Notes: generated from the sequence alone by a model not told the origin. 19,919 nucleotides of DNA from a virus (IMGVR_UViG_2737471827_000004); one strand, 5' to 3'; shown: positions 1-19,919, numbered from the stretch's first letter. Translations and numbers: made by a program.

Positions 1-327
1 TCGCTCCCGCGTCTCCACCAGCTCCCGAAAATAAGCTGAACTGTGGCTGCGCATTCTGGCCACCAGCAAAGGTGGCATTGCCTTTTCGATCGCTGGTAAC
101 AACGCCTGAATTTTTTCAACTGCATCAGGGGTGTCTTTCTCTATCCAGCGGAAAATTTTCTGGGTATTGCGAGCCAGGGCTTCCGGATGGCTGTCGTCGT
201 ACAGTTCAGGAAACGTCATACCCAACTCAAAATAAGCCTGGGTTATTCCAGCTGCCGGAACTTTTTCGCCATCAGGACGCGCCCAGGCATTCATCGCCAT
301 GCGGATGTGTTCATGCTTGATTTTCAT
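1..327 (-). CDS. YdaT-like prophage protein, N-terminal 109 codons (gene continues past the window edge)
   Basis: Reverse-strand ORF with ATG at 327-325, open to base 1 with no stop (MKIKHEHIRMAMNAWARPDGEK...). RBS AAGGGGGG 4-5 nt upstream. N-terminus matches my recollection of Rac YdaT (MKIKHEHI...). Absent from the supplied ORF track because it has no stop in the window. Confidence 0.6.
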   Translation of the reverse strand, partial: MKIKHEHIRMAMNAWARPDGEKVPAAGITQAYFELGMTFPELYDDSHPEALARNTQKIFRWIEKDTPDAVEKIQALLPAIEKAMPPLLVARMRSHSSAYFRELVETRER

Positions 328-553
328 GAATCCCCCCTTGGTTAGAAGGCGGATTATGATCAGAACCGGGAATGACAACCGTCGGTATGTGTAACTCATA
401 TTTGAGCGCCCCGGCAGTGACTGCCTGAATTAGCAACGCCCATTTCCACGGAACCTCTTCCCCCCACATGCTGACTGTGGTTTTTGACGTTCCTAGAGCT
501 GCGGCTGTTTTAACAACTCCGCCAAAATAGCCTAATACTTCTGATTTTTTCAT
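311..553 (-). CDS. Cro/YdaS-like small HTH DNA-binding protein
   Basis: ORF 311-601 on the track; preferred start is ATG at 553 (MKKSEVLGYFGG...), which has a GGAG RBS about 7 nt upstream. HTH-like segment VKTAAALGTSKTTVSMW. Divergent from the CI-like repressor and immediately upstream of the YdaT-like gene. Confidence 0.55.
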   Translation of the reverse strand: MKKSEVLGYFGGVVKTAAALGTSKTTVSMWGEEVPWKWALLIQAVTAGALKYELHIPTVVIPGSDHNPPSNQGGIHENQA

Positions 554-644
554 GAGTCGCTCCATAAAACTGAACGCCAAAAGTTTAATAATCAAAACCA
601 AAGAAAGTCAAGAAACAAAACCATCTGTGTTTTAAAATCAAAAC

Positions 645-1283
645 ATGAACAAGCAAACAATATCTGAACGCATAACCCAACGTATGCATGCGCTAAACCT
701 GAAAGGCAAAGACCTTGTCAATGCCACTGGCGCATCAAAAGGCTCCGTAAGTCAATGGATGAACGGTGGAGGAGCGCCGTCCTCGCGTTACATAAGTTCA
801 CTGGCAAAAATATTGAAAGTAAACGAAAATTGGCTTCTTAATGGAGGAGAGTTAAATACAGGTGATTCGCTTGATCTATCTTTACCGCCGATAAAAACGG
901 TTCCGCTACTATCACTTCAGCAGGCAGCAAGCTGGAGTGATTATATGAAAAATTCCTCAATAACCTCTTGTGTGCAGCTTGTCGGAGAAATCCCGGCCAA
1001 TACCTTTGCAGTTGTTCTAGAGAGTGACAGTATGTCAACATCTGGTGGGGGAGTTTCCATCCCAAATGGTTCAACAGTTTTTGTTGATCCCGATCGAACC
1101 GTACAACCAGGAAATATTGTCCTTGCCTTACCCAAAGGGACCACAACACCTGTCATTCGTAAACTGGAGATAGAAGGGCCGGATATTCTTTTAGTCCCCA
1201 CGAATCCTCGCTACCCTTCAATTATGCTGGATGATCTATCTTGCATATTGGGCGTATGCTTTAAAATTCAACAAAATATTTAA
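645..1283 (+). CDS. CI/LexA-type prophage repressor (N-terminal XRE HTH, C-terminal S24 peptidase)
   Basis: 212 aa. HTH LKGKDLVNATGASKGSVSQWMNG; C-terminal domain has the Ser nucleophile context (LESDSMSTSGG) and a downstream Lys (VIRKL) typical of self-cleaving S24 repressors. Confidence 0.85.
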   Translation: MNKQTISERITQRMHALNLKGKDLVNATGASKGSVSQWMNGGGAPSSRYISSLAKILKVNENWLLNGGELNTGDSLDLSLPPIKTVPLLSLQQAASWSDYMKNSSITSCVQLVGEIPANTFAVVLESDSMSTSGGGVSIPNGSTVFVDPDRTVQPGNIVLALPKGTTTPVIRKLEIEGPDILLVPTNPRYPSIMLDDLSCILGVCFKIQQNI

Positions 1284-1368
1284 CCGACCTCATCTATTTG
1301 ATTAACTGTATGCCATCGTGGTGATGGCTTAACAGCTGCCTGCTTAAAATGTTTTGATAAAAAAACAT

Positions 1369-1397
1369 TGACCTGAAAAGTTCATTTTTCTAAACTT
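1369..1397 (+). promoter_or_regulatory. Candidate sigma70 promoter (-35 TTGACC, 17-bp spacer, -10 TAAACT), with an inverted repeat (AATGTTTT..AAAACATT, 1348-1369) overlapping the -35
   Basis: Motif inspection only. Lies upstream of the ydfA-ydfB-ydfC-dicF-dicB-ydfD gene string, on the far side of the repressor gene. Confidence 0.3.
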
Positions 1398-1575
1398 CAT
1401 TCATTCCCTCTCCCCACCCCACAGAATGCAGGGCAATACTTCTAGTTACCAGGCAGTGGTCAGGGGTTAAGTAGCCAGCCCGAGGCGTAAGAACATGACG
1501 GCAGGGTTCAACTTTAATAACTATGCAGCAGGTTTTTGTTCCGCTACCCCGGCGTTAAGGGGAAATGAGGTCAGC

Positions 1576-1731
1576 ATGGATACTATCGATCTTGGCAACA
1601 GCGAATCTCTGGTATGCGGCGTGTTTCCCAACCAGGACGGTACGTTCACCGCGATGACGTATACCAAAAGCAAAACGTTTAAAACCGAAAATGGTGCCCG
1701 TCGCTGGCTGGAAAGAAACTCAGGTGAGTGA
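1576..1731 (+). CDS. ydfA: Small prophage protein YdfA-like (51 aa)
   Basis: Internal ATG of track ORF 1495-1731 (MDTIDLGNSESLVCGVFPNQDG...), GAGG 5 nt upstream. Length and sequence match my recollection of Qin YdfA. Confidence 0.6.
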   Translation: MDTIDLGNSESLVCGVFPNQDGTFTAMTYTKSKTFKTENGARRWLERNSGE

Positions 1732-1732
1732 T

Positions 1733-1861
1733 ATGGATTTCGACACAATCATGGAAAAGGCTTACGAAGAATACTTCGAAGGTCTTGCCGACGGCGAAGA
1801 AGCTCTCAGCTTCAACGAATTTAAACAGGCGCTTTCCAGTTCGGCAAAATCTAACGGCTGA
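1733..1861 (+). CDS. ydfB: Small acidic prophage protein YdfB-like (42 aa)
   Basis: ATG at 1733, one base after the ydfA stop (translationally coupled). Manual translation MDFDTIMEKAYEEYFEGLADGEEALSFNEFKQALSSSAKSNG, stop at 1859-1861. Below the track's length cutoff. Confidence 0.5.
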   Translation: MDFDTIMEKAYEEYFEGLADGEEALSFNEFKQALSSSAKSNG

Positions 1862-1890
1862 TAAGCGAAACAGCACCGCGAGGAATCAGT

Positions 1891-2109
1891 ATGCAGAAAC
1901 GAGAACCCGTCATCATCGCGCCAGACTATACCGATGATGAACTTTATGAGTGGATGCGCCAGAAAATTAATGCAGCGCAGGATCTGAAATGGGCCAATGA
2001 AGCCAGGGCTAAGCAGGCTGAAAATCTGTCCGCTCTGGAGCAGGATATCACCAGGCTGGAAAAAGCAGCGGCATTAAGCATTGCCAGAATGATTACATAC
2101 CCGCGTTAG
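1891..2109 (+). CDS. ydfC: Small prophage protein YdfC-like (72 aa)
   Basis: Track ORF with GAGGA RBS 6 nt upstream; same strand and order as ydfA/ydfB. Confidence 0.6.
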   Translation: MQKREPVIIAPDYTDDELYEWMRQKINAAQDLKWANEARAKQAENLSALEQDITRLEKAAALSIARMITYPR

Positions 2110-2449
2110 TAGCTAATCAACAAAGCTAAGGTTAGTAATTAAGGAGTTCTCCACGGGTGAGGTGGAGTGCGTGCGCCGGACACGGGTGAGCATCCGGCAC
2201 TGACAGTTTACTGAAAGGATATTTCCCTGAAAAGTCAGACCATAACGCGAAAGCGCACGGCGAGGTAGCTGGTTCATAGATAGCCTGTCGTTAAATTTTC
2301 GTCGACCGTGCGCTTCCGGTTGTGGCAACCCGCGAAATGGCGCGGCGGTAAGTATGGCGGGGTTATTCCTTCCCCGTTGAGGACACCGGGTTGTCAGGTT
2401 GACCATACGCTTAAGTGACAACCCCGCTGCAACGCCCTCTGTTATCAAT

Positions 2450-2507
2450 TTTCTGGTGACGTTTGGCGGTATCAGTTTTACTCCGTGACTGCTCTGCCGC
2501 CCTTTTT
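2450..2507 (+). ncRNA. dicF: DicF small regulatory RNA (ftsZ-targeting sRNA of Qin-type prophages)
   Basis: Sequence TTTCTGGTGACGTTTGGCGGTATCAGTTTTACTCCGTGACTGCTCTGCCGCCCTTTTT matches my recollection of DicF. Ends in a GC stem (GGCGG/CCGCC) plus T5 intrinsic terminator. Sits directly upstream of dicB as in K-12. Exact processed ends are not determinable here. Confidence 0.7.
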
Positions 2508-2676
2508 AAAGTGAATTTTGTGATGTGGTGAATGCGGCTGAGCGCACGCGGAACAGTTAAAACCAAAAACAGTGTTATGGGTGGATTCTCTGTATCCGGC
2601 GTTAATTGTTAACTGGTTAACGTCACCTGGAGGCACCAGGCACTGCATCACAAAATTCATTGTTGAGGACGCGATA

Positions 2677-2865
2677 ATGAAAACGTTATTACCAAACGTT
2701 AATACGTCTGAAGGTTGTTTTGAAATTGGTGTCACTATCAGTAACCCAGTATTTACTGAAGATGCCATTAACAAGAGAAAACAAGAACGGGAGCTATTAA
2801 ATAAAATATGCATTGTTTCAATGCTGGCTCGTTTACGTCTGATGCCAAAAGGATGTGCACAATGA
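2677..2865 (+). CDS. dicB: Cell-division inhibitor DicB (62 aa)
   Basis: Internal ATG of track ORF 2572-2865 (MKTLLPNVNTSEGCFEIGVTISNPVF...), GAGGA RBS 8 nt upstream. Sequence and length match DicB as I recall it. Confidence 0.8.
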   Translation: MKTLLPNVNTSEGCFEIGVTISNPVFTEDAINKRKQERELLNKICIVSMLARLRLMPKGCAQ

Positions 2866-3053
2866 ATTCAGCATTTGTGCTTGTTCTGACAGTTTTTCTT
2901 GTTTCCGGAGAGCCAGTTGATATTGCAGTCAGTGTGCACAGGACAATGCAGGAGTGTATGACTGCAGCAACCGAACAGAAAATTCCCGGTAACTGTTACC
3001 CGGTCGATAAAGTTATTCACCAGGATAATAACGAAATCCCGGCAGGTCTTTAA
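2862..3053 (+). CDS. ydfD: YdfD-like small lysis-associated prophage protein (63 aa, N-terminal hydrophobic segment)
   Basis: ATG overlaps the dicB stop (ATGA, 2862-2865). MNSAFVLVLTVFLVSGEPVD...; AAGGA RBS upstream. Confidence 0.7.
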   Translation: MNSAFVLVLTVFLVSGEPVDIAVSVHRTMQECMTAATEQKIPGNCYPVDKVIHQDNNEIPAGL

Positions 3054-3146
3054 AACAGTTCCGTAATAAATATCCGGTTTCATTCTTATATGCCAGCAAT
3101 GGCAGGGATTTGTTCATCCTTAAATCTGTCATGAGGTTAAAACAAA

Positions 3147-5618
3147 ATGAGTAAAGTCTTTATTTGCGCCGCTATTCCTGACGAACTGGCAACAAGGGAA
3201 GAAGGCGCTGTGGCTGTAGCCACAGCCATTGAAGCTGGCGACGAACGCCGTGCTCGAGCAAAATTTCACTGGCAGTTCCTGGAACATTATCCGGCTGCTC
3301 AGGACTGCGCTTATAAATTTATTGTCTGCGAGGATAAACCTGGCATACCCCGCCCTGCCCTCGATTCATGGGATGCTGAATATATGCAGGAAAACCGCTG
3401 GGATGAGGAGTCTGCTTCTTTTGTCCCGGTTGAGACTGAATCCGATCCGATGAACGTCACTTTTGACAAGCTGGCCCCTGAAGTACAGAACGCTGTCATG
3501 GTTAAGTTCGACACATGTGAAAACATCACCGTTGATATGGTTATTAGCGCACAGGAATTGTTGCAGGAAGACATGGCAACATTCGACGGACATATCGTTG
3601 AAGCGTTGATGAAAATGCCAGAAGTTAACGCCATGTATCCGGAGCTTAAGTTGCACGCCATTGGGTGGGTTAAGCATAAATGTATTCCTGGTGCTAAATG
3701 GCCCGAAATTCAGGCAGAGATGCGCATCTGGAAAAAACGTCGCGAAGGTGAACGCAAGGAAACCGGAAAATACACGTCTGTTGTTGATCTCGCCCGCGCC
3801 AGAACCAATCAACAGTACACTGAAAATTCAACAGGAAAAATCAGCCCGGTCATTGCTGCCATTCATCGCGAATACAAGCAGACATGGAAAACACTGGATG
3901 ACGAACTGGCCTACGCTCTCTGGCCTGGTGATGTGGATGCCGGAAACATTGACGGCAGCATCCATCGCTGGGCAAAAAAAGAAGTTATCGACAACGACCG
4001 CGAAGACTGGAAGCGTATCTCGGCATCAATGCGCAAACAGCCTGATGCCCTTCGCTACGACCGCCAGACTATTTTTGGCCTTGTCCGTGAGCGTCCGATC
4101 GACATTCACAAAGATCCCATAGCACTGAACAAATATATCTGCGAATACCTGACGACAAAGGGCGTGTTTGAGAATGAAGAAACAGACCTGGGCACTGTTG
4201 ATGTTCTCCAGTCATCAGAAACACAAACTGATGCAGTGGAAACTGAGGTATCTGATATCCCAAAAAATGAAACCGCGCCGGAAGCTGAACCATCTGTAGA
4301 GCGTGAGGGGCCGTTCTATTTCCTCTTCGCAGATAAGGACGGAGAAAAATACGGTCGCGCAAACAAACTTTCTGGTCTGGATAAGGCACTGGCTGCTGGC
4401 GCCACTGAAATCACAAAAGAAGAATATTTTGCCCGAAAAAATGGCACATACACGGGCTTACCGCAAAATGTAGATACCGCTGAAGATTCAGAACAACCAG
4501 AGCCGATAAAAGTTACCGCTGACGAAGTAAACAAAATTATGCAGGCAGCCAATATCAGCCAGCCTGACGCCGATGAACTGCTTGCAGTATCACGTGGTGA
4601 ATTTGTTGAAGGGATTAGCGACCCGAATGATCCGAAATGGATTAAGGGGATCCAGACCCGCGATTCTGTGAACCAGAACCAGCAAGAAACGGAACAGAAC
4701 GACCAGAAAGCGGAACAAAACAGCCCAAATACGCAACAAAACGAGCCAGAAACGAAACAACCTGAACCAGTAGTGCAACAGGAACCGGAAAAGATCTGCA
4801 CCGCCTGCGGTCAGAGCGGTGGCGGCAACTGCCCTGATTGTGGTGCGGTGATGGGTGACGCAACATACCAGGAAATATTCGATGGAGAGAATCAGCCTGA
4901 AGTTCAGGAAAATGATCCGGAGGAAATGGAAGGCACTGCGCATCAGCACAAGGAGAACACTGGCGGCAATCAGCATCATGCCAGCGATAGTGAAACTGGC
5001 GAGGCGTCAGATCCCTTAATTAAGGCAAACGGTCATCATAATCTCACATCCACCAGCAGAGCGGGGATTCATCTGATGATCGACCTTGAAACCATGGGAA
5101 AAAATCCCGATGCCCCGATTATCTCAATAGGTGCAATATTTTTCGATCCGCAAACCGGAGATATGGGACCGGAATTTAGTAAGACTATCGATCTGGAAAC
5201 TGCTGGCGGAGTCATTGATCGGGACACCATTAAATGGTGGCTTAAACAATCACGCGAAGCGCAATCTGCCATTATGACCGATGAAATCCCGTTAGATGAT
5301 GCACTGTTACAATTGCGGGAATTTATCGACGAAAACTCCGGTGAATTTTTTGTTCATGTCTGGGGAAATGGAGCCAACTTCGACAACACGATTTTGCGCC
5401 GTTCATACGAACGGCAGGAGATCCCCTGCCCGTGGCGTTACTACAACGATCGCGATGTACGCACAATCGTTGAGCTGGGGAAAGCCATAGACTTCGATGC
5501 CAGAACGGCTATTCCATTCGAAGGTGAGCGCCATAATGCACTTGATGACGCCCGTTACCAGGCAAAATACGTTTCAGTTATCTGGCAAAAACTGATCCCG
5601 AGTCAGGCTGATTCTTAA
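3147..5618 (+). CDS. Prophage exonuclease (823 aa): long N-terminal region, acidic Q/E/N/P-rich linker, CxxC-x9-CxxC zinc ribbon, C-terminal DEDDh (DnaQ-like) 3'-5' exonuclease domain
   Basis: One uninterrupted ORF. C-terminal motifs Exo I MIDLETMG (D-x-E), Exo II GNGANFD, Exo III HNALDDARYQA. Zinc ribbon CTACGQSGGGNCPDC at about 4797-4841; low-complexity linker about 4630-4790. Occupies the position of K-12 ydfE, which is broken by IS2 there. Resemblance of the N-terminal part to the exodeoxyribonuclease-VIII-annotated family is from memory only. Confidence 0.75.
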   Translation: MSKVFICAAIPDELATREEGAVAVATAIEAGDERRARAKFHWQFLEHYPAAQDCAYKFIVCEDKPGIPRPALDSWDAEYMQENRWDEESASFVPVETESDPMNVTFDKLAPEVQNAVMVKFDTCENITVDMVISAQELLQEDMATFDGHIVEALMKMPEVNAMYPELKLHAIGWVKHKCIPGAKWPEIQAEMRIWKKRREGERKETGKYTSVVDLARARTNQQYTENSTGKISPVIAAIHREYKQTWKTLDDELAYALWPGDVDAGNIDGSIHRWAKKEVIDNDREDWKRISASMRKQPDALRYDRQTIFGLVRERPIDIHKDPIALNKYICEYLTTKGVFENEETDLGTVDVLQSSETQTDAVETEVSDIPKNETAPEAEPSVEREGPFYFLFADKDGEKYGRANKLSGLDKALAAGATEITKEEYFARKNGTYTGLPQNVDTAEDSEQPEPIKVTADEVNKIMQAANISQPDADELLAVSRGEFVEGISDPNDPKWIKGIQTRDSVNQNQQETEQNDQKAEQNSPNTQQNEPETKQPEPVVQQEPEKICTACGQSGGGNCPDCGAVMGDATYQEIFDGENQPEVQENDPEEMEGTAHQHKENTGGNQHHASDSETGEASDPLIKANGHHNLTSTSRAGIHLMIDLETMGKNPDAPIISIGAIFFDPQTGDMGPEFSKTIDLETAGGVIDRDTIKWWLKQSREAQSAIMTDEIPLDDALLQLREFIDENSGEFFVHVWGNGANFDNTILRRSYERQEIPCPWRYYNDRDVRTIVELGKAIDFDARTAIPFEGERHNALDDARYQAKYVSVIWQKLIPSQADS

Positions 5619-5690
5619 TGTTCAACTGTCGCCGGTTGTGACTGGTATTCTGCAACCGGCGCTCGTCTGATGTAAGAGATAAAGAAATCG

Positions 5691-5942
5691 ATGAGCGAAG
5701 TAATCATGATTGTCTCTCCCGGCAAATGGGTATCCGAAGAGCAGTTAATTGCGCTGAAAGGAATAAAAAAAGGTACGTTAAAAAAGGCCCGGGAAAAATC
5801 GTTTATGGAAGGAAGGGAATATAAGCATGTCGCTCATGACGGTATGCCATGGGATAACAGTCCATGCTTTTACAACCTGGAAGAAATTGATCGCTGGATT
5901 GAGCGCCAGGCATCAGCGAGACCAAGACGTCATCTTACTTGA
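5691..5942 (+). CDS. Excisionase-like small DNA-binding protein (83 aa)
   Basis: Small basic ORF immediately upstream of and co-directional with the integrase. Function inferred from position and size. Confidence 0.5.
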   Translation: MSEVIMIVSPGKWVSEEQLIALKGIKKGTLKKAREKSFMEGREYKHVAHDGMPWDNSPCFYNLEEIDRWIERQASARPRRHLT

Positions 5943-5976
5943 CTAAAAGCCACACTAACTAATGAGAGAAGTTGAA

Positions 5977-7257
5977 ATGAAATATCCGACAGGCGTGGAA
6001 AACCATGGAGGGAAATTACGTATCTGGTTTGTTTATAAAGGCGTAAGAGTCAGGGAAAATCTGGGGGTTCCTGACACAGCAAAAAACAGGCGCGTTGCAG
6101 GTGAACTACGCGCCTCTGTTTGTTACGCAATAAAAACTGGTGTTTTCGACTATGCAAAACAGTTTCCCTCCTCACGCAATCTGGAAAAATTTGGTGAGGC
6201 CCGACAAGATTTAACCATAAAAGAACTGGCTGAAAAATTTCTGGCACTGAAAGAAACTGAAGTCGCCAAAACATCACTCAACACATACCGTGCCGTCATC
6301 AAAAATATCCTGAGCATAATCGGTGAAAAAAATCTTGCCTCATCGATTAATAAAGAAAAATTACTGGAGGTTCGTAAAGAGTTACTGACTGGATACCAGA
6401 TCCCCAAAAGTAACTATATTGTTACACAACCAGGGAGATCGGCTGTAACTGTAAATAATTACATGACAAATCTTAACGCCGTGTTCCAGTTTGGTGTTGA
6501 TAACGGTTACCTGGCAGATAATCCGTTTAAGGGGATCTCGCCATTAAAGGAATCAAGAACCATTCCGGATCCTCTTTCGCGGGAAGAATTTATCCGTCTT
6601 ATCGATGCGTGCAGAAATCAGCAAGCAAAAAATTTATGGTGTGTTTCTGTTTATACTGGCGTTCGCCCTGGTGAGCTGTGTGCACTTGGATGGGAGGACA
6701 TAGATCTGAAAAATGGAACAATGATGATCAGGAGAAATTTAGCAAAAGACCGTTTCACGGTACCAAAAACACAGGCGGGAACCAATCGGGTCATTCATCT
6801 TATTAAGCCAGCAATCGACGCTCTCCGGAGTCAGATGACATTAACGAGACTGAGCAAAGAGCATATCATTGATGTTCACCTCAGAGAGTATGGCAGAACA
6901 GAAAAACATAAATGCACCTTTGTTTTTCAACCTGAAGTGTCAGCGAGAGTAAAAAATTATGGTGACCATTTTACCGTTGACTCAATAAGGCAGATGTGGG
7001 ACGCAGCGATAAAACGTGCCGGACTCCGCCATCGAAAATCATATCAGTCGAGACATACTTATGCCTGCTGGTCGCTGACAGCTGGTGCTAACCCGGCATT
7101 TATAGCAAACCAGATGGGCCATGCAGATGCGCAAATGGTATTTCAGGTATACGGAAAATGGATGTCTGAAAACAATAATGCACAGGTAGCTTTGTTAAAT
7201 ACACAGTTAAGCGAGTTTGCCCCAACCATGCCCCATAACGAAGCAATGAAAAATTAA
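5977..7257 (+). CDS. intQ: Tyrosine site-specific integrase (lambda family), intact
   Basis: Track ORF 5962-7257; ATG at 5977 (MKYPTGVENHGG...) is preferred because GAGAGAAG lies 5 nt upstream. C-terminal catalytic region has RHTYA and HADAQMVFQVYGKW (H-x-x-R and Tyr nucleophile context). Sits next to rspB where the K-12 intQ pseudogene lies; the symbol is given by position only. Confidence 0.8.
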   Translation: MKYPTGVENHGGKLRIWFVYKGVRVRENLGVPDTAKNRRVAGELRASVCYAIKTGVFDYAKQFPSSRNLEKFGEARQDLTIKELAEKFLALKETEVAKTSLNTYRAVIKNILSIIGEKNLASSINKEKLLEVRKELLTGYQIPKSNYIVTQPGRSAVTVNNYMTNLNAVFQFGVDNGYLADNPFKGISPLKESRTIPDPLSREEFIRLIDACRNQQAKNLWCVSVYTGVRPGELCALGWEDIDLKNGTMMIRRNLAKDRFTVPKTQAGTNRVIHLIKPAIDALRSQMTLTRLSKEHIIDVHLREYGRTEKHKCTFVFQPEVSARVKNYGDHFTVDSIRQMWDAAIKRAGLRHRKSYQSRHTYACWSLTAGANPAFIANQMGHADAQMVFQVYGKWMSENNNAQVALLNTQLSEFAPTMPHNEAMKN

Positions 7258-12617: not shown

Positions 12618-14027
12618 ATGTCCAAAAATGACCGAATGGTGGGCATCAGCCGCAGAACACTCGTTAAATCAACCGCGATAGGTTCTCTGGCGCTGGCTGC
12701 AGGCGGTTTTTCTTTACCGTTCACCCTGCGCAGTGCAGCGGCAGCAGTACAACAGGCCAGCGAAAAAGTGATCTGGGGTGCCTGTTCCGTCAACTGTGGT
12801 AGCCGCTGTGCACTTCGTCTACATGTTAAAGATAATGAAGTCACCTGGGTGGAAACTGACAACACCGGCAGCGACGAGTATGGCAATCATCAAGTACGCG
12901 CCTGTTTGCGTGGTCGATCCATCCGCCGGCGTATTAATCATCCCGATCGCTTGAATTACCCAATGAAACGCGTGGGTACACGCGGTGAAGGCAAATTCGA
13001 ACGGATTAGCTGGGATGAAGCCCTGGATACTATCGCCAGTAGCCTGAAAAAAACCGTCGAACAATATGGCAATGAGGCTGTATATATTCAGTACTCTTCG
13101 GGGATTGTTGGCGGCAATATGACCCGCTCTTCGCCATCAGCCTCGGCGGTCAAACGCCTGATGAACTGCTACGGCGGTTCACTCAATCAGTATGGCTCCT
13201 ACAGCACCGCGCAAATTTCCTGTGCCATGCCCTACACCTACGGCAGTAATGATGGCAACAGCACCACGGATATTGAAAACAGCAAGCTGGTCGTGATGTT
13301 TGGTAACAACCCGGCAGAAACCCGCATGAGCGGCGGTGGCATCACTTATCTTCTTGAAAAAGCGCGCGAGAAATCGAACGCCAAAATGATTGTTATCGAT
13401 CCGCGATATACCGATACGGCTGCTGGTCGTGAAGATGAATGGCTCCCTATTCGCCCGGGCACCGATGCCGCGCTGGTTGCGGGTATTGCCTGGGTATTGA
13501 TTAACGAAAATCTCGTTGATCAACCTTTTCTCGATAAATACTGCGTCGGCTATGACGAAAAAACCTTACCCGCAGATGCACCCAAAAATGGTCACTATAA
13601 AGCCTATATTCTTGGTGAAGGTGATGATAACACAGCGAAAACGCCGCAGTGGGCTTCGCAAATTACCGGTATCCCGGTAGACCGTATCATCAAACTGGCG
13701 CGTGAAATTGGCACAGCAAAACCCGCTTATATCTGCCAGGGCTGGGGGCCGCAACGCCAGGCAAACGGCGAACTGACTGCACGCGCTATTGCTATGTTAC
13801 CTATTTTGACGGGCAATGTCGGCATCAGCGGCGGAAATAGTGGCGCGCGTGAATCGACCTATACCATTACCATAGAACGCCTGCCGGTGCTGGATAATCC
13901 GGTCAAAACGTCAATCTCCTGCTTCAGCTGGACAGATGCTATCGATCATGGTCCGCAAATGACGGCAATCCGCGACGGCGTCCGCGGCAAAGATAAACTG
14001 GATGTGCCCATTAAGTTCATCTGGAAC
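12618..14027 (+). pseudogene. ynfE: ynfE 5' fragment (Tat-exported Mo-bisMGD reductase catalytic subunit, DmsA paralog), codons 1-470; interrupted by the insertion
   Basis: Twin-arginine signal (SRRTLVK) and N-terminal Cys cluster (CSVNCGSRCALR). Native-looking sequence ends at ...IKFIWN (14027). The frame then runs 16 codons into foreign DNA (FKDLKRTLSRPEVLH) to a stop at 14073-14075. Confidence 0.85.
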
Positions 14028-14268
14028 TTCAAGGACTTGAAGCGGACCCTTAGTAGGCCTGAGGTCCTGCATTGAGTCAAGACCTTGTGTCATTCTTTGT
14101 GCCAGACTTGTGTCATTAGACGGGATGTCTAGACGGCTGGTCAGGACCCTCCGGTGGCCTTGGTATGGACTTGAGGCGGGACTATGGGGGAAGTCTGCTG
14201 GCTTAATGTATTAGATGGTCATTCACATTTTTCTGTCAGAAACCATCGGTCCCACTGTGAGTCCAAAC

Positions 14269-14424
14269 CTAAGGACCTAGAAGTCCACCCACAGCCTTAG
14301 ACAGAGTGTCGAACACATCCACACCGAGTCGACCAGAGAGGACCATGTAGAGACCCACAGAGAGGAACACGAGTTTATAGACCAGAGTCAGGAGGGACTT
14401 CAGGTCTGCGGAAGTCATAGACAT
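14269..14424 (-). CDS. 51-aa single-pass membrane protein (holin-like or small membrane toxin-like), unassigned
   Basis: ATG at 14424 with AAGGAGG 5 nt upstream. MSMTSADLKSLLTLVYKLVFLSVGLYMVLSGRLGVDVFDTLSKAVGGLLGP has one roughly 21-residue hydrophobic helix. Last gene of the cassette. Confidence 0.5.
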   Translation of the reverse strand: MSMTSADLKSLLTLVYKLVFLSVGLYMVLSGRLGVDVFDTLSKAVGGLLGP

Positions 14425-14496
14425 TTGGCCCTCCTTATCTTGTATACTACCATACCAGAAATAAGGCCCAGACCCGAAGGTCCAGACCATAGTTAG

Positions 14497-15483
14497 TTAG
14501 TTGGTCTCAGTAAAGCTCAGGCGTTTGACTACAGGCAGGACAGCAGTAGCACTACCAGTACCCATCTTGATTGTCGTAGCAGCTTCAGCGACCACGAAGA
14601 CCTTGCCGAGGATTTCTAGGTCGTGAGACTGAGAGTCGCCATCTCTGGATAAGACCACGGTAATGTTCTCACCATCATGACGGAAGCAGCTGAAGCTCAG
14701 GGCCGTAAAACGCTTAGCCATCATGAACACACCACGGTCCTCACCGTTGTAATACGCGATGTCGGTACCCAGCATATCCACGATAGCGTCTTCGCCACCG
14801 AAGCCCTGCTTAGCAGCCAGACGGGAGAGAGCCTTGAGGTGTGACTCATGGGCGATAATGCCGTAGTCAGAAACCTCAGTACCGAAAGAAGACTCGGTGT
14901 TCTCATACAGGGCATCCATGATAGCGTCAGCCTTAGCGGTCAGGCTACCAGTCAGGACCGGAAGCTCTACAGTCTTCAACAGCTTGGAGGATTCCAGTAC
15001 ATCGACCATGCGACTATTGATGGTACGGACCACGTTATCGCAGATGTTCAGAGCGTCCTGCTGGAGCGTCCCCTGAGTGAAACCAGTGGAAGACTTAGCG
15101 TCCCACAGCTTGGTTTGATGTGATACGAGGATAGCCTGTTCAATCGGCTCCACGGTGATTTCAGTGCCGGACGGAGCGGTCACGACTTCAGGTCGCTTGC
15201 CACCACGGACAGGGACCAGCACAGAGCGGTCAGCCAGAGTGTGAGCAATGATTGGAGTCGGTAAGCTGTTACGGGTCGGCAGGACTTCTACAGGGAACGG
15301 GATGTTATCTTGAGCGTCTTTAAGCACACCATTGAGCATCGTCTTAACCAGCTTAGCCAGCTCAAGGGCGTAGACCTGAGGGTCTGCGTTAGTTGGCAAA
15401 CCTTCGTTAATCTGAATGTTGTCGGTGTCGGTGATACGTACTGGCTCAATGCCGAACTGGAAAGCGTCTTTAGTCATAGTCAT
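14497..15483 (-). CDS. 328-aa hypothetical protein, unassigned
   Basis: Long ORF with AAGGAGA RBS 9 nt upstream. Codon usage rich in GCT/GGT/CGT/AAG/GAC, as in highly expressed coliphage genes. No catalytic motif recognised and no Walker A. Confidence 0.6.
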   Translation of the reverse strand: MTMTKDAFQFGIEPVRITDTDNIQINEGLPTNADPQVYALELAKLVKTMLNGVLKDAQDNIPFPVEVLPTRNSLPTPIIAHTLADRSVLVPVRGGKRPEVVTAPSGTEITVEPIEQAILVSHQTKLWDAKSSTGFTQGTLQQDALNICDNVVRTINSRMVDVLESSKLLKTVELPVLTGSLTAKADAIMDALYENTESSFGTEVSDYGIIAHESHLKALSRLAAKQGFGGEDAIVDMLGTDIAYYNGEDRGVFMMAKRFTALSFSCFRHDGENITVVLSRDGDSQSHDLEILGKVFVVAEAATTIKMGTGSATAVLPVVKRLSFTETN

Positions 15484-15566
15484 GATAATTAATCTCCTTG
15501 AGTCAAATACTTGAAGTCCCTAACGGTAAGTCAGGGACCGTGTGTTCTTAGATGAGGGTCGCTTGC

Positions 15567-16058
15567 TTACAAGCAGTCCATCCAGTTAGCGCCACTATCG
15601 AGGTCAGCCATAATTGAAGCCTTGGAACGACCAGCGGAATGGGTAGCACTGCGGAGGTTCTCACCATAGGTCCGGCGTTCAGCTTTGACCTGTTCACGGC
15701 GCTGTAGCTCTTTCTGCCACTCTGCATCGGTCATGTTCTCTTCACGCATACGCTCAGCCTGAAGTCGTTGCTCTTTAGCGATACGCTCAGCCTCAGCTCG
15801 TTTGTTAAGCTGGCGGCGACCATAGGCGGTCATCAGGTCATTACTGAAGAAGTTACCAATGGTCACGCCAGCTTCAGCAAGAGCTTCCAGTAACTCCATT
15901 GCTTCGCGGCTGGTGGATGGCAAGCCTGACAGATACCCCGGAATGAGGGTCTTGATAGCGAGGGACAGCGGATAGGACTGATCGTCCAGACTCACAGTAT
16001 TCTCGTAGAGATTGATGTCGGTGACTGACAGCTTCCAGTTGTTGTTGTTGAATAACAT
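15567..16058 (-). CDS. 163-aa hypothetical protein with a highly charged predicted coiled-coil segment
   Basis: AGAGGAG RBS 7-8 nt upstream. Charged segment RRQLNKRAEAERIAKEQRLQAERMREENMTDAEWQKELQRREQVKAERR. Confidence 0.55.
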   Translation of the reverse strand: MLFNNNNWKLSVTDINLYENTVSLDDQSYPLSLAIKTLIPGYLSGLPSTSREAMELLEALAEAGVTIGNFFSNDLMTAYGRRQLNKRAEAERIAKEQRLQAERMREENMTDAEWQKELQRREQVKAERRTYGENLRSATHSAGRSKASIMADLDSGANWMDCL

Positions 16059-16200
16059 AAGTTGGTACTCCTCTTGAGAAGGTGAGAACTATCGGTATCG
16101 CAGACACAGTTATGCCTACGGGTCTCCCCGCATCGGTCATTCTCAAAAGGTGTTTAAATTAAGGTATTGAGTAGGTGAGCTGCTAACGGTTAGGAGACAG

Positions 16201-16413
16201 CTAGCTTACTAGCGACAGTTTCATAGCGACCAGTTGCGCTATCAGCTCGTCTCGGGATTGGTGCTGGCGGGTCTCATCTTCCGGGTCTAGACCAAGCTCC
16301 TTCAGGAGGAATTCAGTCCGATAGCCACGGTAACGGAGAGTCATGCGACCCTCAGGTGTGCGCGGGTCAACCATAGGTCTTTGGGAGACCATAGGTCTTT
16401 GGTTAGTCATCAT
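16201..16413 (-). CDS. 70-aa hypothetical protein with a tandemly duplicated N-terminal heptapeptide
   Basis: Start 2 nt after the stop of the upstream gene. Contains the 18-bp tandem repeat at 16371-16406 (encodes QRPMVS-QRPMVD). Confidence 0.45.
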   Translation of the reverse strand: MMTNQRPMVSQRPMVDPRTPEGRMTLRYRGYRTEFLLKELGLDPEDETRQHQSRDELIAQLVAMKLSLVS

Positions 16414-16415
16414 TG

Positions 16416-16676
16416 TTAGAAGTCCTCGTTAGACCAATCATCCACGTCAAATTCACTGGTGATAGGCGCTTGGAAGTCAGGTAGACCCTCTGGTATATCT
16501 AGCGGCAGTCGCTCGTCGACTCTCAGTGCCATCTCTTCGTATATATGCCGAAGCAGAGAAGTCAGTAAGATATGGTCCGCAGGATGCTCATGGTCGTATC
16601 TCTCAATGAAACATATGGTTGTCGCTATTGACTTCATAATCAGTTCATCAGTAAGTCGGTTGGAATCCATAGTCAT
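16416..16676 (-). CDS. 86-aa strongly acidic protein (about 20 Asp/Glu vs 5 Lys/Arg), unassigned
   Basis: Start 1 nt after the stop of the Rha-like gene (TAA-G-ATG). MTMDSNRLTDELIMKSIATTICFIERYDHEHPADHILLTSLLRHIYEEMALRVDERLPLDIPEGLPDFQAPITSEFDVDDWSNEDF. Confidence 0.55.
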   Translation of the reverse strand: MTMDSNRLTDELIMKSIATTICFIERYDHEHPADHILLTSLLRHIYEEMALRVDERLPLDIPEGLPDFQAPITSEFDVDDWSNEDF

Positions 16677-16677
16677 C

Positions 16678-17388
16678 TTAGAGTCCCTTCTGCTTGCCGG
16701 ATTTGGCTTGCTTCAGGAGGTATTCCTGCTTCTGCTGGTCGGTGCCAGTGAATGCAATAAGGATGCCTTTCATCTTGTCAATCGTCTCAGGTCTACCGAA
16801 GACCTCCAGTCCCTTAGCGTTGAAGCGAAAGTTATAACCACCTGCTGAGAACTTCTGGTCTGACGGCTTAATGATACGGAAGCAGTCGGAATACTTTGGA
16901 TTTACAGACCACTCGTTACTGATTGGATTCTTACGAAAGAGACCACGATGCTGAAGAAGTGCGGTCATTAGCTTCTGAGCAGGTAGACCATAGGTTTTGC
17001 AGTAGTCACCCCAAGTCACGCCTCGACGGTTAGCGGACTGAATTGCTGCTCGCTTCTTCTGGTCTTCCAGTAACTGCTTGTCCTTCTCAATTCGTCGGAT
17101 GTATTCAAGGACTTTGCGACGCACAGCTTTAGACTCACGCATACCGACCAATAGTAGTTGGTCTCCGTTAAGGATAGTGTGAGAGGATTTACGTCCAGAA
17201 GCGCCCGTGTCTAATAAAAGGAAATTTTCCTCTTTTAAATCCAGCTCATCCTTCACGCGATTGATGAAGTCCTTATTACTGACGGGATTCTCCCCGGCCT
17301 CTTCACGGGCAGGATTGATAACCTTGGTCAGGAACTCATAGGAAGACAGAGAGAACTCATCGTTAAAGATGACTACTTGTTGAGACAT
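16678..17388 (-). CDS. Rha/antirepressor-like phage regulatory protein (236 aa); C-terminal half unassigned
   Basis: Track ORF 16678-17601 has an implausible N-terminal extension. ATG at 17388 (MSQQVVIFNDEF...) has a perfect AAGGAG 8 nt upstream. The N-terminal region (LLLDTGASGRKSSHTILNGDQLLLVGMRESKAVRRKVLEYI) resembles the N-terminal DNA-binding domain of Rha/Ant-type phage proteins; this is a family-level impression. Confidence 0.5.
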   Translation of the reverse strand: MSQQVVIFNDEFSLSSYEFLTKVINPAREEAGENPVSNKDFINRVKDELDLKEENFLLLDTGASGRKSSHTILNGDQLLLVGMRESKAVRRKVLEYIRRIEKDKQLLEDQKKRAAIQSANRRGVTWGDYCKTYGLPAQKLMTALLQHRGLFRKNPISNEWSVNPKYSDCFRIIKPSDQKFSAGGYNFRFNAKGLEVFGRPETIDKMKGILIAFTGTDQQKQEYLLKQAKSGKQKGL

Positions 17389-17957
17389 ATCGTTGTACTC
17401 CTTTTTGTTATGCCTCCTGAAGTCACACCCTGAGAGCCTACTCAAGCCCCCAACGATAGGGAGACTCACAGGCAACAGGAGACATACAGAAAGACTTGAG
17501 GTGATGATGAGGTCGTGTGAAGACCAGAGATGATGGTGGTGGTGGTGACTGCTCAGTTTTGAGCGCGTTAAGTTCTTCGACCATAGAGACGAAGGTTGCA
17601 AGACCGCATGTCAGGACGAGCTGTAAGGACTCCAGATGGTGAGCGGTGATAGACTTAAGCCAATGTAGTGAGTAGACGAGCTACTAACTGAGATGACTGA
17701 AGAACGCTAACGAGCTGGAGGTCGATACACGAGGTCTGACAGAGGCGGTCTTCCTACCAGTGATAGTTAAGCCCTACCACTGGTCATACATACCCAACCT
17801 CAAGCAACGACCCAATGTATACAGGGTCCCGATGCTTTGAGCTGGAGACTGACGGAGCTATCGTCGACCCCATGGTTGAGGAAGACACATAGAAGGAATG
17901 AGGTCTGACTTAAGTCTGGACTATAGGTCTTATATTAATCTTCATAAGAAGATAATA

Positions 17958-18008
17958 ATTAACTTAGAGTCATAACTTCAGTCTTACTTAGAGTCTTAAC
18001 TTTAAGTC
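17958..18008. repeat. Array of four imperfect ~11-bp direct repeats (ACTTAGAGTC / ACTTCAGTC / ACTTAGAGTC / ACTTTAAGTC) in an AT-rich stretch
   Basis: Read directly from the sequence. Lies in the 767-bp non-coding region between the HNH gene and the Rha-like gene. A palindrome GACTTAAGTC sits at about 17909-17918, and a C7-T-C6 tract at 18024-18037. Confidence 0.6.
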
Positions 18009-18155
18009 AGCATCTATGGTCTGCCCCCCCTCCCCCCATTGCTGGAAGGAGAGGCGGTAGTGTCTGCCATTTTCCCTATACTGATAATTTAGCACCCTCC
18101 TCTACAGACCAGACGCACCAAGGCCTACAGAGGCGCTCTAAGTTAGCAACCGTCA

Positions 18156-18890
18156 TCAAACCACCACAGACTCTTCGTCGATGTAGTGCTTCTTGTTCAG
18201 CTTCTTAAAGTAGAGACGCCCAGTTTTAGGCTCAATGTAGACTTTCAGTCCATCATGCGTCTTAGCGTAGCCGGGTAAACGTCGCTTCCTTGGTTTATAC
18301 CCTTCAGGCTTGGACACCTCGTAGCGCTCGTCAGCTCGCTTCTGGTCTGCCTCTGTCCAGTCGGTCCACCCATCGTAGGCGAATTCACCGTGTAGCTTCT
18401 GACGCTGTTCCTGTAGCCAGACCATAAGCTCCCTGACCTCATAAGAGAGTCTCGCCCGGACCTTGCCGTCTATCTTAATACGCGCTCTGTAGCGACCCTC
18501 AGCTTTTACAAAGTCAATCCCTTTCGGCAAATAGTTCTGAAGTTTGCCTCCAAGGTTGTCTCTGTTCCACTGGTTCTGCTGTGGTGTAACTAGGCGCAGG
18601 TTGTCAGGATGGTCATTGAGTCGGTTACCGTCGATATGGTCAACGAACATTCCCTCAGGGATGTGACCCTTACACAGGCTGTAGATGACTCTGGAGCGAC
18701 GATAGCGCTTACCCAGTACAGAGACAGAGGCATAGCCATTTTGATGCACATAGAAGCTAACAGGCTCTCCTGTGGCGCGTTTAGATTGGCCGTAAGGTGT
18801 CTTGACTCGGAGTAGCTGAGGAATGGTTGGGTCAAAGGTGTAATGGTCGTACAGTTTGATTCGGTCTAGTGGCTTGGCTGGTCGGCCCAT
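18156..18890 (-). CDS. HNH endonuclease (244 aa), homing-endonuclease-like
   Basis: HNH motif VDHIDGNRLNDHPDNLRLVTPQQNQWN, flanked by basic beta-rich segments (GYASVSVLGKRYRRSRVIY; GRYRARIKIDGKVRARLSY) as in the DNA-binding modules of phage HNH homing endonucleases. Start ATG at 18890 is only 7 bp from resumed ynfE sequence. Confidence 0.8.
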   Translation of the reverse strand: MGRPAKPLDRIKLYDHYTFDPTIPQLLRVKTPYGQSKRATGEPVSFYVHQNGYASVSVLGKRYRRSRVIYSLCKGHIPEGMFVDHIDGNRLNDHPDNLRLVTPQQNQWNRDNLGGKLQNYLPKGIDFVKAEGRYRARIKIDGKVRARLSYEVRELMVWLQEQRQKLHGEFAYDGWTDWTEADQKRADERYEVSKPEGYKPRKRRLPGYAKTHDGLKVYIEPKTGRLYFKKLNKKHYIDEESVVV

Positions 18891-18897
18891 GATGGAT

Positions 18898-19914
18898 ACC
18901 CTCGTTAATCAGCATTCTGACATCAACAAAACGCATGAAATTCTGCAGGACGAATCGAAATGCGAAATGATTGTGATCATCGAAAACTTTATGACCTCAT
19001 CGGCAAAATATGCCGACATTCTGCTGCCAGACCTGATGACCGTTGAGCAGGAAGATATTATTCCTAACGACTACGCCGGTAACATGGGATATCTCATTTT
19101 CCTCCAGCCTGTCACCAGCGAAAAATTCGAACGCAAACCGATTTACTGGATCCTGAGTGAAGTCGCGAAACGTCTTGGACCTGACGTCTATCAAAAGTTC
19201 ACAGAAGGTCGCACGCAGGAACAATGGTTACAACATCTGTACGCCAAAATGCTTGCCAAAGATCCGGCGTTACCGTCTTACGACGAACTGAAAAAAATGG
19301 GTATCTATAAGCGTAAAGATCCCAATGGCCATTTTGTCGCCTACAAAGCATTTCGTGACGACCCCGAGGCAAATCCACTTAAAACGCCTTCCGGTAAGAT
19401 TGAAATTTATTCCAGCAGGCTGGCGGAAATTGCCCGTACCTGGGAACTGGAAAAAGATGAAGTGATAAGCCCATTGCCAGTTTATGCCTCAACCTTTGAA
19501 GGCTGGAACTCCCCTGAACGTAGAACCTTCCCACTGCAACTGTTTGGTTTCCATTACAAATCCCGTACTCACTCGACCTACGGCAATATTGATCTCCTGA
19601 AGGCTGCCTGCCGTCAGGAGGTGTGGATCAACCCTATAGATGCGCAGAAACGTGGGATTGCCAACGGCGATATGGTGCGGGTGTTTAACCATCGTGGCGA
19701 AGTTCGGCTACCAGCCAAAGTAACACCACGTATTCTCCCTGGAGTTAGCGCTATGGGCCAGGGAGCCTGGCACGAGGCCAATATGTCTGGCGATAAAATC
19801 GACCATGGCGGCTGTGTGAATACGCTAACCACTCTGCGCCCTTCACCACTGGCGAAGGGAAACCCGCAGCACACTAATCTGGTCGAGATCGAAAAAATAG
19901 TAAGCGTAAACTGA
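18898..19914 (+). pseudogene. ynfE: ynfE 3' fragment (C-terminal 338 codons plus stop)
   Basis: In-frame continuation TLVNQHSDINKTHEILQDESKCEMIVIIENFMTSSAKYADILLPD... to the stop at 19912-19914. The MIRSSGLAGRPMMD prefix of the track ORF is read-through of junction and insert sequence. Confidence 0.85.
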
Positions 19915-19919
19915 CCGCC

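Follow-up and report, generated by a model that had tools for sequence, protein, structure and literature searches.

The DNA analysed here is a 19,919-nucleotide stretch catalogued as viral (IMGVR_UViG_2737471827_000004; hereafter the window), which corresponds to the rspAB-ynfABspeGynfCD-ynfE region of Escherichia coli, downstream of the end of a Qin-like lambdoid prophage. Within it, ynfE is split by a foreign, phage-related cassette of 4.87 kb (hereafter the insert), and it is this insert, and the family of integrative elements to which it belongs, that we describe. A preliminary description, made from the sequence by itself, had placed the insert at positions 14028–18897. Alignment with K-12 ynfE and with strain L73, which carries the same element, confirmed both junctions and showed these coordinates to be right within 1–2 bases: the last base of ynfE homology is 14028 and homology restarts at 18896 (ATACCCTCG...).

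The open reading frame (ORF) of the 5' ynfE fragment reads on through 15 foreign codons until it meets a stop at 14075, and codon T475 of ynfE lies at 18898 in the right-hand piece. Residues 471–474 of YnfE (YAGN; 9 nt, ACGCGGGAA) are absent from the window. At the far end of the gene an IS66-family element sits exactly at the ynfE stop codon, 19904, and because it replaced that stop codon the right-hand ORF gains VSVN (..EKIVSVN) and is four codons too long. The sum of the two pieces, 470 + 338 = 808 codons, which had been taken as a sign of near-precise insertion, is therefore coincidental, as residues 471–474 are lost and the four extra codons derive from IS66.

The insert consists of seven minus-strand ORFs, of 73/51, 328, 163, 70, 86, 236 and 244 amino acids (aa), and a non-coding region of 0.77 kb, as the preliminary description had it. 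In the near-identical copy of L73, four of the seven are annotated by NCBI. For the small hydrophobic ORF, a start at the ATG at 14424, after AAGGAGG, appears more likely from the sequence than the first ATG and gives 51 aa rather than 73. Pfam, PHROGs and NCBIfam gave no match in the insert to a portal, terminase, tail, polymerase or primase; its lack of any integrase or transposase domain was borne out with Pfam and PHROGs, and Rfam returned nothing. The 328-, 163-, 86-, 70- and 73/51-aa proteins have no match in Pfam, PHROGs, NCBIfam or PADLOC. Recognisable functions in the elements are limited to integrase, HNH endonuclease, Ant-like protein and capsid-like protein.

Table 1 Features of the insert and of the ynfE pieces on either side of it (positions in the window).
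Feature	Position	Strand	Details
ynfE 5' fragment	12618..14028	+	codons 1-470 plus one base; K-12 alignment, residues 1-470, 7 mismatches
attL core CATCTGGAACT, 11 bp	14018..14028	+	sole exact copy left in window; ends where ynfE homology ends
Block homologous to Kayfunavirus right end and start of terminal repeat	14100..14268	-	nhmmer; candidate packaging/maturation site
Small hydrophobic ORF	14269..14490	-	73 aa from first ATG
G+C-rich hairpin and U-run	14465..14488	-	directly after capsid-like gene; terminator scan
328-aa capsid-like protein gene	14497..15483	-	conserved core gene of element family
163-aa partner protein gene	15567..16058	-	small N-terminal domain, two long helices, conserved C-terminal NWMDxL
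Two small ORFs	16201-16413 (70 aa), 16416-16676 (86 aa)	-	ORF list
236-aa Ant/KilAC-like protein gene	16678..17388	-	phrog_10324 anti-repressor Ant, E=1.5e-30
Non-coding control region	17389..18155	-	0.77 kb; Kayfunavirus-type promoter-like sites, AT-rich stretch
Degenerate promoter-like site GCTTAACTATCACTGGTAGGAAG	17750..17772	-	16.5 with first position weight matrix, <15 with second
Promoter-like site GCTAAATTATCAGTATAGGGAAA	18071..18093	-	position weight matrix score 21.3-21.5
244-aa HNH endonuclease gene	18156..18890	-	Pfam HNH_3 E=4.9e-15; phrog_99
Deletion junction	18896..18900		5-bp microhomology ATACC; window BLAST vs L001 and sequences on both sides
ynfE 3' fragment	18896..19903	+	residues 475-808, 1 mismatch
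IS66-family element end (GTAAGCGTAAACTGAC...)	19904..19919	+	window departs from L73 here; outside satellite

Megablast searches revealed the same element at the same place in ynfE in many complete E. coli genomes, where its annotation includes a 'site-specific integrase'. The copy in strain L73 matches the window at 99.3% identity over 6.9 kb; between its HNH gene and ynfE it has a further 1,815 bp, which include the gene of a 528-aa tyrosine integrase (Pfam Phage_integrase). In L73 the 11-bp core CATCTGGAACT is present as direct repeats at both junctions (attL/attR), 6,674 bp apart, and in L73, MB50 and MSB1_9D a Phage_integrase protein of 528–540 aa adjoins the right junction. The integrase and att sites of these near-identical copies at the same site account for an insertion whose means the preliminary description had left unexplained. 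When 5,426 complete E. coli genomes were probed for the two junctions, 128 had that of attL and 149 that of attR (the integrase side).

The right junction of the window occurs in none of the 5,426 genomes and proved to be a deletion joint at a 5-bp microhomology. Missing from the window relative to L73 are the 1,815 bp that hold the integrase, the attR core, the strongest promoter and 9 nt of ynfE, and no second copy of the core CATCTGGAACT is present in the window. Of the two hallmarks of a tyrosine-recombinase island, an integrase at one end and flanking attL and attR, the window copy thus keeps attL alone; it has no integrase because of the deletion, and with both integrase and attR gone it can no longer excise. 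As read from these alignments, the insertion is ordinary site-specific recombination followed by decay via microhomology-mediated deletion. A second, independent deletion variant lacks window positions 17073–19089, one end of the deletion falling within the Ant-like gene and the other 190 bp inside the ynfE 3' piece; it has a 2-bp microhomology at the joint (L002 5050–5100 = window 17072 | 19090) and is otherwise 100% identical to the window. It is present in at least three complete genomes (Res13-Lact-PEB01-20, UTME-8 and CUPS TF 6/1_01), the junction having been read in the first (L002).

Two of the options raised in the preliminary description, a new minimal mobile element without an integrase and a chimeric assembly or engineered construct, would fit the window taken by itself, given that it contains no recombinase, inverted repeats or target duplication and that its right junction is unique among the complete genomes. 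Both are highly improbable. The missing DNA is present in the 99.3%-identical copies at the same site, integrase included, the joint shows ordinary microhomology, and the whole arrangement lies within a 124-kb contig of the public assembly GCA_013771825.1 with normal flanking genes; that contig, together with the presence of the family in more than 300 complete genomes, makes an artefact unlikely. The apparently 'integrase-less' insertion is a decay product, and such relics, like the disruption of ynfE, recur in E. coli. Islands that disrupt ynfE without restoring it, defined by their integrases, have been mapped computationally by TIGER, and for such islands that study, in its available part, proposed 'regulated gene integrity' (Mageeney et al. 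2020, PMC7192596).

Defined by its conserved pair of 163-aa and 328-aa genes, the family is present in 312 of the 5,426 complete E. coli genomes, where it occupies several loci and no genome has more than two copies; further members come from Salmonella, Enterobacter, Citrobacter, Kluyvera and Yersinia. The order of parts is integrase; a variable gene (HNH, DUF4145 or unknown); the non-coding region; a variable Ant, KilA-N or Rha gene with small ORFs; the 163-aa gene; and the 328-aa gene, followed by a short non-coding tail up to attL. The unit between the att sites measures 6.6–7 kb across distant lineages. Other members occupy a tRNA-Gly site next to ETT2. There, L084 (E. coli ECCNB20-2) and L085 (Shiga toxin-producing E. 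coli (STEC) 2013C-4187) lie between actS/xdhA and the ETT2 type III secretion remnant; the hosts at this site thus include Shiga-toxin-producing strains, and one copy is interrupted by an IS66 element. A remote relative of the same architecture, L094 (Logan SRR18106139, 7,010 bp, 59% G+C), runs from an integrase to genes of 134 aa and 422 aa; its att repeats are separated by about 6.7 kb, and its capsid-like protein, at 24% identity, has a Big_2 domain at the C-terminus.

The 328-aa protein is a probable HK97-fold capsid-like protein. An exhaustive profile search of its family returned about 40 full-length relatives at 20–43% identity, two of which bear C-terminal Ig-like domains, a domain type typical of virion surface proteins. 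The capsid-like protein of L094 is one of these relatives. Profile searches of the family against PDB sequences and hhalign against gp10 of K1F and EcoDS1 gave no relation; neither the 328-aa nor the 163-aa protein resembles helper gp10 or gp9 in sequence, and blastp of the element proteins against six-frame EcoDS1 gave nothing below E=0.26. The hairpin and U-run that directly follow the 328-aa gene lie where T7-like phages have a terminator behind gene 10, and in EcoDS1 such a terminator is annotated behind gp10. A hairpin and U-run of other sequence lies at the same place in L003, L080 and L083–L085. The partner protein keeps a constant length of 163 aa, is modelled as a small domain followed by two long helices and, by the position of its gene, we infer it to be a scaffold. 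The 236-aa protein, whose tblastn matches are antirepressors of temperate phages, stands in a variable slot that holds KilA-N, Rha or other genes in relatives.

The HNH gene fills the variable accessory slot beside the (lost) integrase. Its product has its closest phage homologues, at 47–50% identity, in HNH homing endonucleases of Kayfunavirus, the genes of which are located at 38.5–39.9 kb, near the right end, in PE3-1, Ro45lw and phiYIO1-1 (records that start at the conventional left end). Another gene was seen in L078, a metagenomic relative in a ynfE/dmsA-like gene of another organism: an ORF after its capsid-like gene (L078 5844–6086) is homologous as DNA to the gene 7.3 region of K1F and EcoDS1 (nhmmer E=1.5e-5), and this element may have acquired a helper virion gene.

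The control region contains, on the coding strand only, the motif CTAAAYTATCACTATAGGG. A 31-mer built on this promoter motif matches 237 phage records, most of which are Escherichia and Salmonella phages or bear the name Kayfunavirus; among the matches listed, full-length genomes of about 39 kb typically have the 31-mer at 7–10 places each, some of them annotated 'promoter'. In IMG/VR the promoter 16-mer occurs mostly in contigs of about 39–40 kb, often several times per contig, and two of the few other contigs with it also encode the capsid-like protein. We built a position weight matrix (PWM) from eleven annotated EcoDS1 promoters, by which the phage's own sites score about 28–33; one annotated promoter is offset by a base and is not rescued in either of two PWMs. 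The site at 18093–18071 agrees with the 23-bp Kayfunavirus-class consensus CCTAAACTATCACTATAGGRA on the coding strand and is a predicted promoter, and none of 200 shuffles matched AAAYTATCASTATAGGG at up to 2 mismatches. The second site, 17750–17772, has a 1-nt insertion relative to the consensus. The extra promoter site of L73, which the window no longer has, scores 28.7, and scores of up to 33.1 occur in relatives.

All 11 elements for which the upstream region was available have one to three PWM sites on the capsid strand, with a best site per element of 21.5–33.1; there are two sites in 9 of the 11, one in the window copy and, by the first PWM, three in L73, and 20.9 kb of host DNA has no site reaching 15. 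The region also shares conserved blocks with L003, a relative at the tRNA site, and includes an AT-rich stretch (17925–17995, 70–80% A+T). Other Kayfunavirus phages (GW1 and Ro103C3lw) have a second promoter class, TATACCCTCACTATAGG, at 5–7 places per genome; one ynfE element (L089) carries this class alone, whereas in Kluyvera and Salmonella elements it forms a direct tandem with the first. The tandem ACCCTCACTATAGG and CTATCACTATAGG specificities lie a few bases apart (L088 6069–6117 and 6541–6563; L090 6024–6073 and 6585–6634), and in the Salmonella copy the pair occurs twice per element; such tandem promoters look like an adaptation to two helper RNA-polymerase types. In the distant L094, four AAAAACCC[TC]CACT motifs form two tandem pairs and resemble the T7-like promoter of the gh-1 type. 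Their core recurs in T7-sized IMG/VR contigs; the 15-mer used as a probe of IMG/VR gave mostly single matches at chance level, the shorter core alone recurring. L140, a 6.8-kb IMG/VR contig with two L094-type promoters, was considered as a satellite and turned out to be a phage fragment. Sigma-70-like promoters number zero in the insert (scan of 13900–19000), against 4.6 ± 1.7 in shuffles, which raises the question of how intact copies express their integrase and accessory gene.

Beyond the small hydrophobic ORF, close to attL, the element carries a block homologous to the right end of Kayfunavirus genomes and the start of their terminal repeat (nhmmer E=1.4e-6 against K1F and 1.6e-5 to 7e-5 against EcoDS1), oriented in the direction of transcription. 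The block is present in 11 of 11 family members tested (nhmmer E about 2e-7 to 2e-3). The alignment conserved just before and across the phage terminus reads ACGATGAGTTTTGAC.GAAAAATGTGAGACC.CATCT.A.A ... CCCCCATAG. Two further resemblances to EcoDS1 came up. The 11-mer GGGACTATGGG is common to the insert and the EcoDS1 terminal repeat, inverted, and was judged a chance match because about 100 such matches are expected. A 22-of-23-nt match, CAACCATGGGGTCGACGATAGCTC, joins window 17850–17885 (minus strand) to EcoDS1 413–448, which lies just right of the left terminal repeat and a short-repeat array.

The relative synonymous codon usage (RSCU) of the insert genes correlates at 0.83 with that of the genes of Kayfunavirus EcoDS1, at 0.40 with the host genes of the window and at 0.27 with those of the neighbouring lambdoid prophage. 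This upholds the likeness to lytic coliphage genes that the preliminary description had noted, and its link to lytic podophages holds as well, since the promoters, the genome-end block and the HNH gene all point to Kayfunavirus.

These features could belong to a degraded temperate T7-like prophage, that is, an integrase-bearing relative of the Autographiviridae that entered ynfE and lost most of its genome. T7-type promoters, a terminal-repeat-like sequence, a capsid-like gene with its terminator and an integrase are all present, and T7-like phages with temperate features exist, LUZ100 being an example by the available part of its description. We nevertheless consider such an origin very unlikely. 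The same compact gene set and size recur in the 312 complete E. coli genomes, across several integration sites and several genera, and no copy retains a remnant of an RNA polymerase, DNA polymerase, portal, tail or terminase; a single architecture is not what random decay would yield. Moreover, the capsid-like and 163-aa proteins are unrelated in sequence to gp10 and gp9 of the phages from which the promoters come.

The insert is instead a decayed, immobilised copy of an integrative element of about 6.67 kb, and its family is likely to be a minimal satellite of virulent T7-like Kayfunavirus phages, with K1F, EcoDS1, GW1 and relatives as the implied helpers. Two properties of a satellite were found in the family: it is without a full set of virion, packaging and replication genes, and it carries helper-specific signals in its promoters and genome-end block. 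A satellite was among the options of the preliminary description and is the one we favour. In its fuller form, we lean somewhat toward an undescribed and widespread family of T7-like-phage satellites of about 6.7 kb that combine promoter mimicry, a T7-type promoter/AT-rich origin and packaging by a mimic of the genome end, the window copy being an integrase-deleted relic.

Upon infection by the helper, its single-subunit RNA polymerase would transcribe the element from the Kayfunavirus-type promoters. Because the element has no replication genes, we propose that helper enzymes would replicate it, a promoter followed by the AT-rich stretch being a possible T7-type origin. The helical 163-aa and HK97-like 328-aa proteins would then build small capsids or redirect assembly to them, and the helper terminase would recognise the genome-end mimic, cut and package the element. 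The integrase would insert it into ynfE of the next cell, and the products of the variable slot (HNH, DUF4145 or other) may hinder the helper or competing phages. What the window has is a stranded relic; judging from its sequence, its two weaker promoter-like sites may yet drive transcription upon infection.

Promoter mimicry would serve defence equally well, and the elements could be phage-triggered defence islands of the abortive-infection or decoy type. Their promoters would be sensors by which the RNA polymerase of an invading phage switches on poisons (a capsid-like decoy, the HNH nuclease and the Ant-like protein), and they would spread by ordinary horizontal transfer and their integrase. 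The variable slot by the integrase does hold nuclease or defence-like genes (HNH, DUF4145), integrase-less copies like that of the window persist in genomes, and the element was not found in phage records or as a free IMG/VR contig. A defence island would, however, have no need for a conserved helper genome end with the terminal-repeat start, which every member retains in the correct orientation, nor for a tightly conserved unit size of 6.6–7 kb, and PADLOC finds no known defence system apart from one weak homing-endonuclease match. We judge defence as the explanation unlikely, and defence and satellite lifestyles are not mutually exclusive.

Several observations weigh against the family being Kayfunavirus satellites. 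We infer helper dependence from the sequences, and with no portal, terminase or replication gene in the element, many steps must come from the helper. The scaffold role of the 163-aa protein is drawn from gene position only. The two promoter-like sites left in the window (21.5 and 16.5) are weaker than the phage's own (about 28–33). Among 50,697 phage records, neither megablast with the insert nor tblastn with the 328-aa protein found the element. With lengths of 18–73 kb, the four IMG/VR contigs encoding the capsid-like protein far exceed a free 6.7-kb element. The match to EcoDS1 413–448 is of marginal significance (E=0.013) and did not recur when longer queries were used; it may reflect chance or a second cis site. 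In integrated copies the integrase gene is situated upstream of the phage promoters, which makes the trigger of excision hard to place, the more so as T7-like phages shut off host transcription. In a separate check, Logan and ENA contigs of about 6.4–7.3 kb were considered as circular forms; they have no terminal overlaps and are integrated copies, because their ends lie in host flanks (tRNA, dmsA/ynfE-like).

Two neighbours of the locus are independent of the element. The Qin-like lambdoid prophage end occupies window 1–7257 and includes a ydaT-like toxin, cro/cI, dicB, ydfD, an exonuclease and an excisionase; its apparently intact integrase of 426–431 aa (5962/5977–7257) lies 6.8 kb from the insert in ynfE and is unrelated to it. 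On the other side, the IS66 tnpA, tnpB and DDE genes follow directly downstream in the source contig (GCA_013771825.1), and between the IS66 element and ynfG no ynfF gene is called there (L075 9027–11513).

Molecular biology and phage therapy make heavy use of T7-like phages, those of the K1F type targeting K1 E. coli and related ones S. Typhi. If the satellite interpretation is true, a resident element that bears a phage packaging site and is activated by the phage polymerase would affect phage yield, host range, therapy and gene transfer. It would also represent a new logic of satellite induction, in which mimicry of polymerase promoters takes the place of repressor/antirepressor sensing, and the elements would be among the smallest capsid-encoding mobile elements known. 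In openly searchable full text, subscription-only papers being outside this scope, no description was found of a satellite of K1F, of Kayfunavirus or of T7-like phages.

Several known systems share parts of this design. Phage-inducible chromosomal islands of the capsid-forming kind (cf-PICIs) are about twice as large, encode in addition a portal, head-tail connectors, a protease/scaffold and a small terminase, obtain just their tails from temperate helpers and are under repressor control of the phage-inducible chromosomal island (PICI) type. The implied helper of the ynfE family is by contrast a virulent T7-like phage, and control is apparently through promoters for the helper RNA polymerase. 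Of the cf-PICI head module and small terminase, the ynfE family has the capsid-like and helical 163-aa proteins only, with no portal, connector or terminase match. As the family probably is too, cf-PICIs of Enterobacteria are, in the available part of their description, chromosomally integrated satellites with an integrase at one end and an HK97-type capsid protein of their own, rather than mere remodelling of the helper capsid (10.1101/2022.09.08.507074). Markers of PICIs and of P4, namely a primase-replicase or alpha-type primase-helicase, AlpA, Sid/Psu/delta and a master repressor, were not detected in the seven ORFs or in the annotations of relatives.

[quoted passage not shown] The ynfE family falls outside their definition (no capsid gene, a small core made up of an integrase and excision/replication proteins, fis site, Vibrionaceae), in that a capsid-like gene is its most conserved gene, its site is ynfE or tRNA-Gly, its hosts are Enterobacterales and its promoters are of the T7 type. 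The likeness lies in the lifestyle: as far as the available part of the source goes, PICMIs of Vibrionaceae are very small satellites of reduced gene content that depend on virulent phages, without capsid-remodelling genes and with their DNA packaged as a concatemer (PMC10803314). The TIGER-mapped islands share the target gene ynfE and, in the available part of that study, are neither typed as satellites nor tied to T7-like phages (PMC7192596).

The PICI-like element (PLE) of Vibrio cholerae is, by the available part of its literature, likewise a satellite of a virulent phage (ICP1) that is triggered only by infection, uses replication and virion proteins of its helper and carries anti-helper nucleases. 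PLE measures about 18 kb and has its own replication initiator and an external scaffold, TcaP, which acts on the helper coat protein; we know of no promoter mimicry for a phage-encoded RNA polymerase in PLE. Chung and Hinkle reportedly found in 1990 that plasmids with a T7 origin and the concatemer junction are replicated and packaged by T7. These plasmids combine a promoter/origin with a genome-end junction, the same cis elements as in the ynfE family, and differ in being artificial, in being packaged as concatemers in full-size heads and in having neither an integrase nor a capsid gene. By their defining gene sets, we regard the ynfE family as probable phage satellites distinct from cf-PICI, PICI/P4 and PICMI, of which the window copy is a decayed member.

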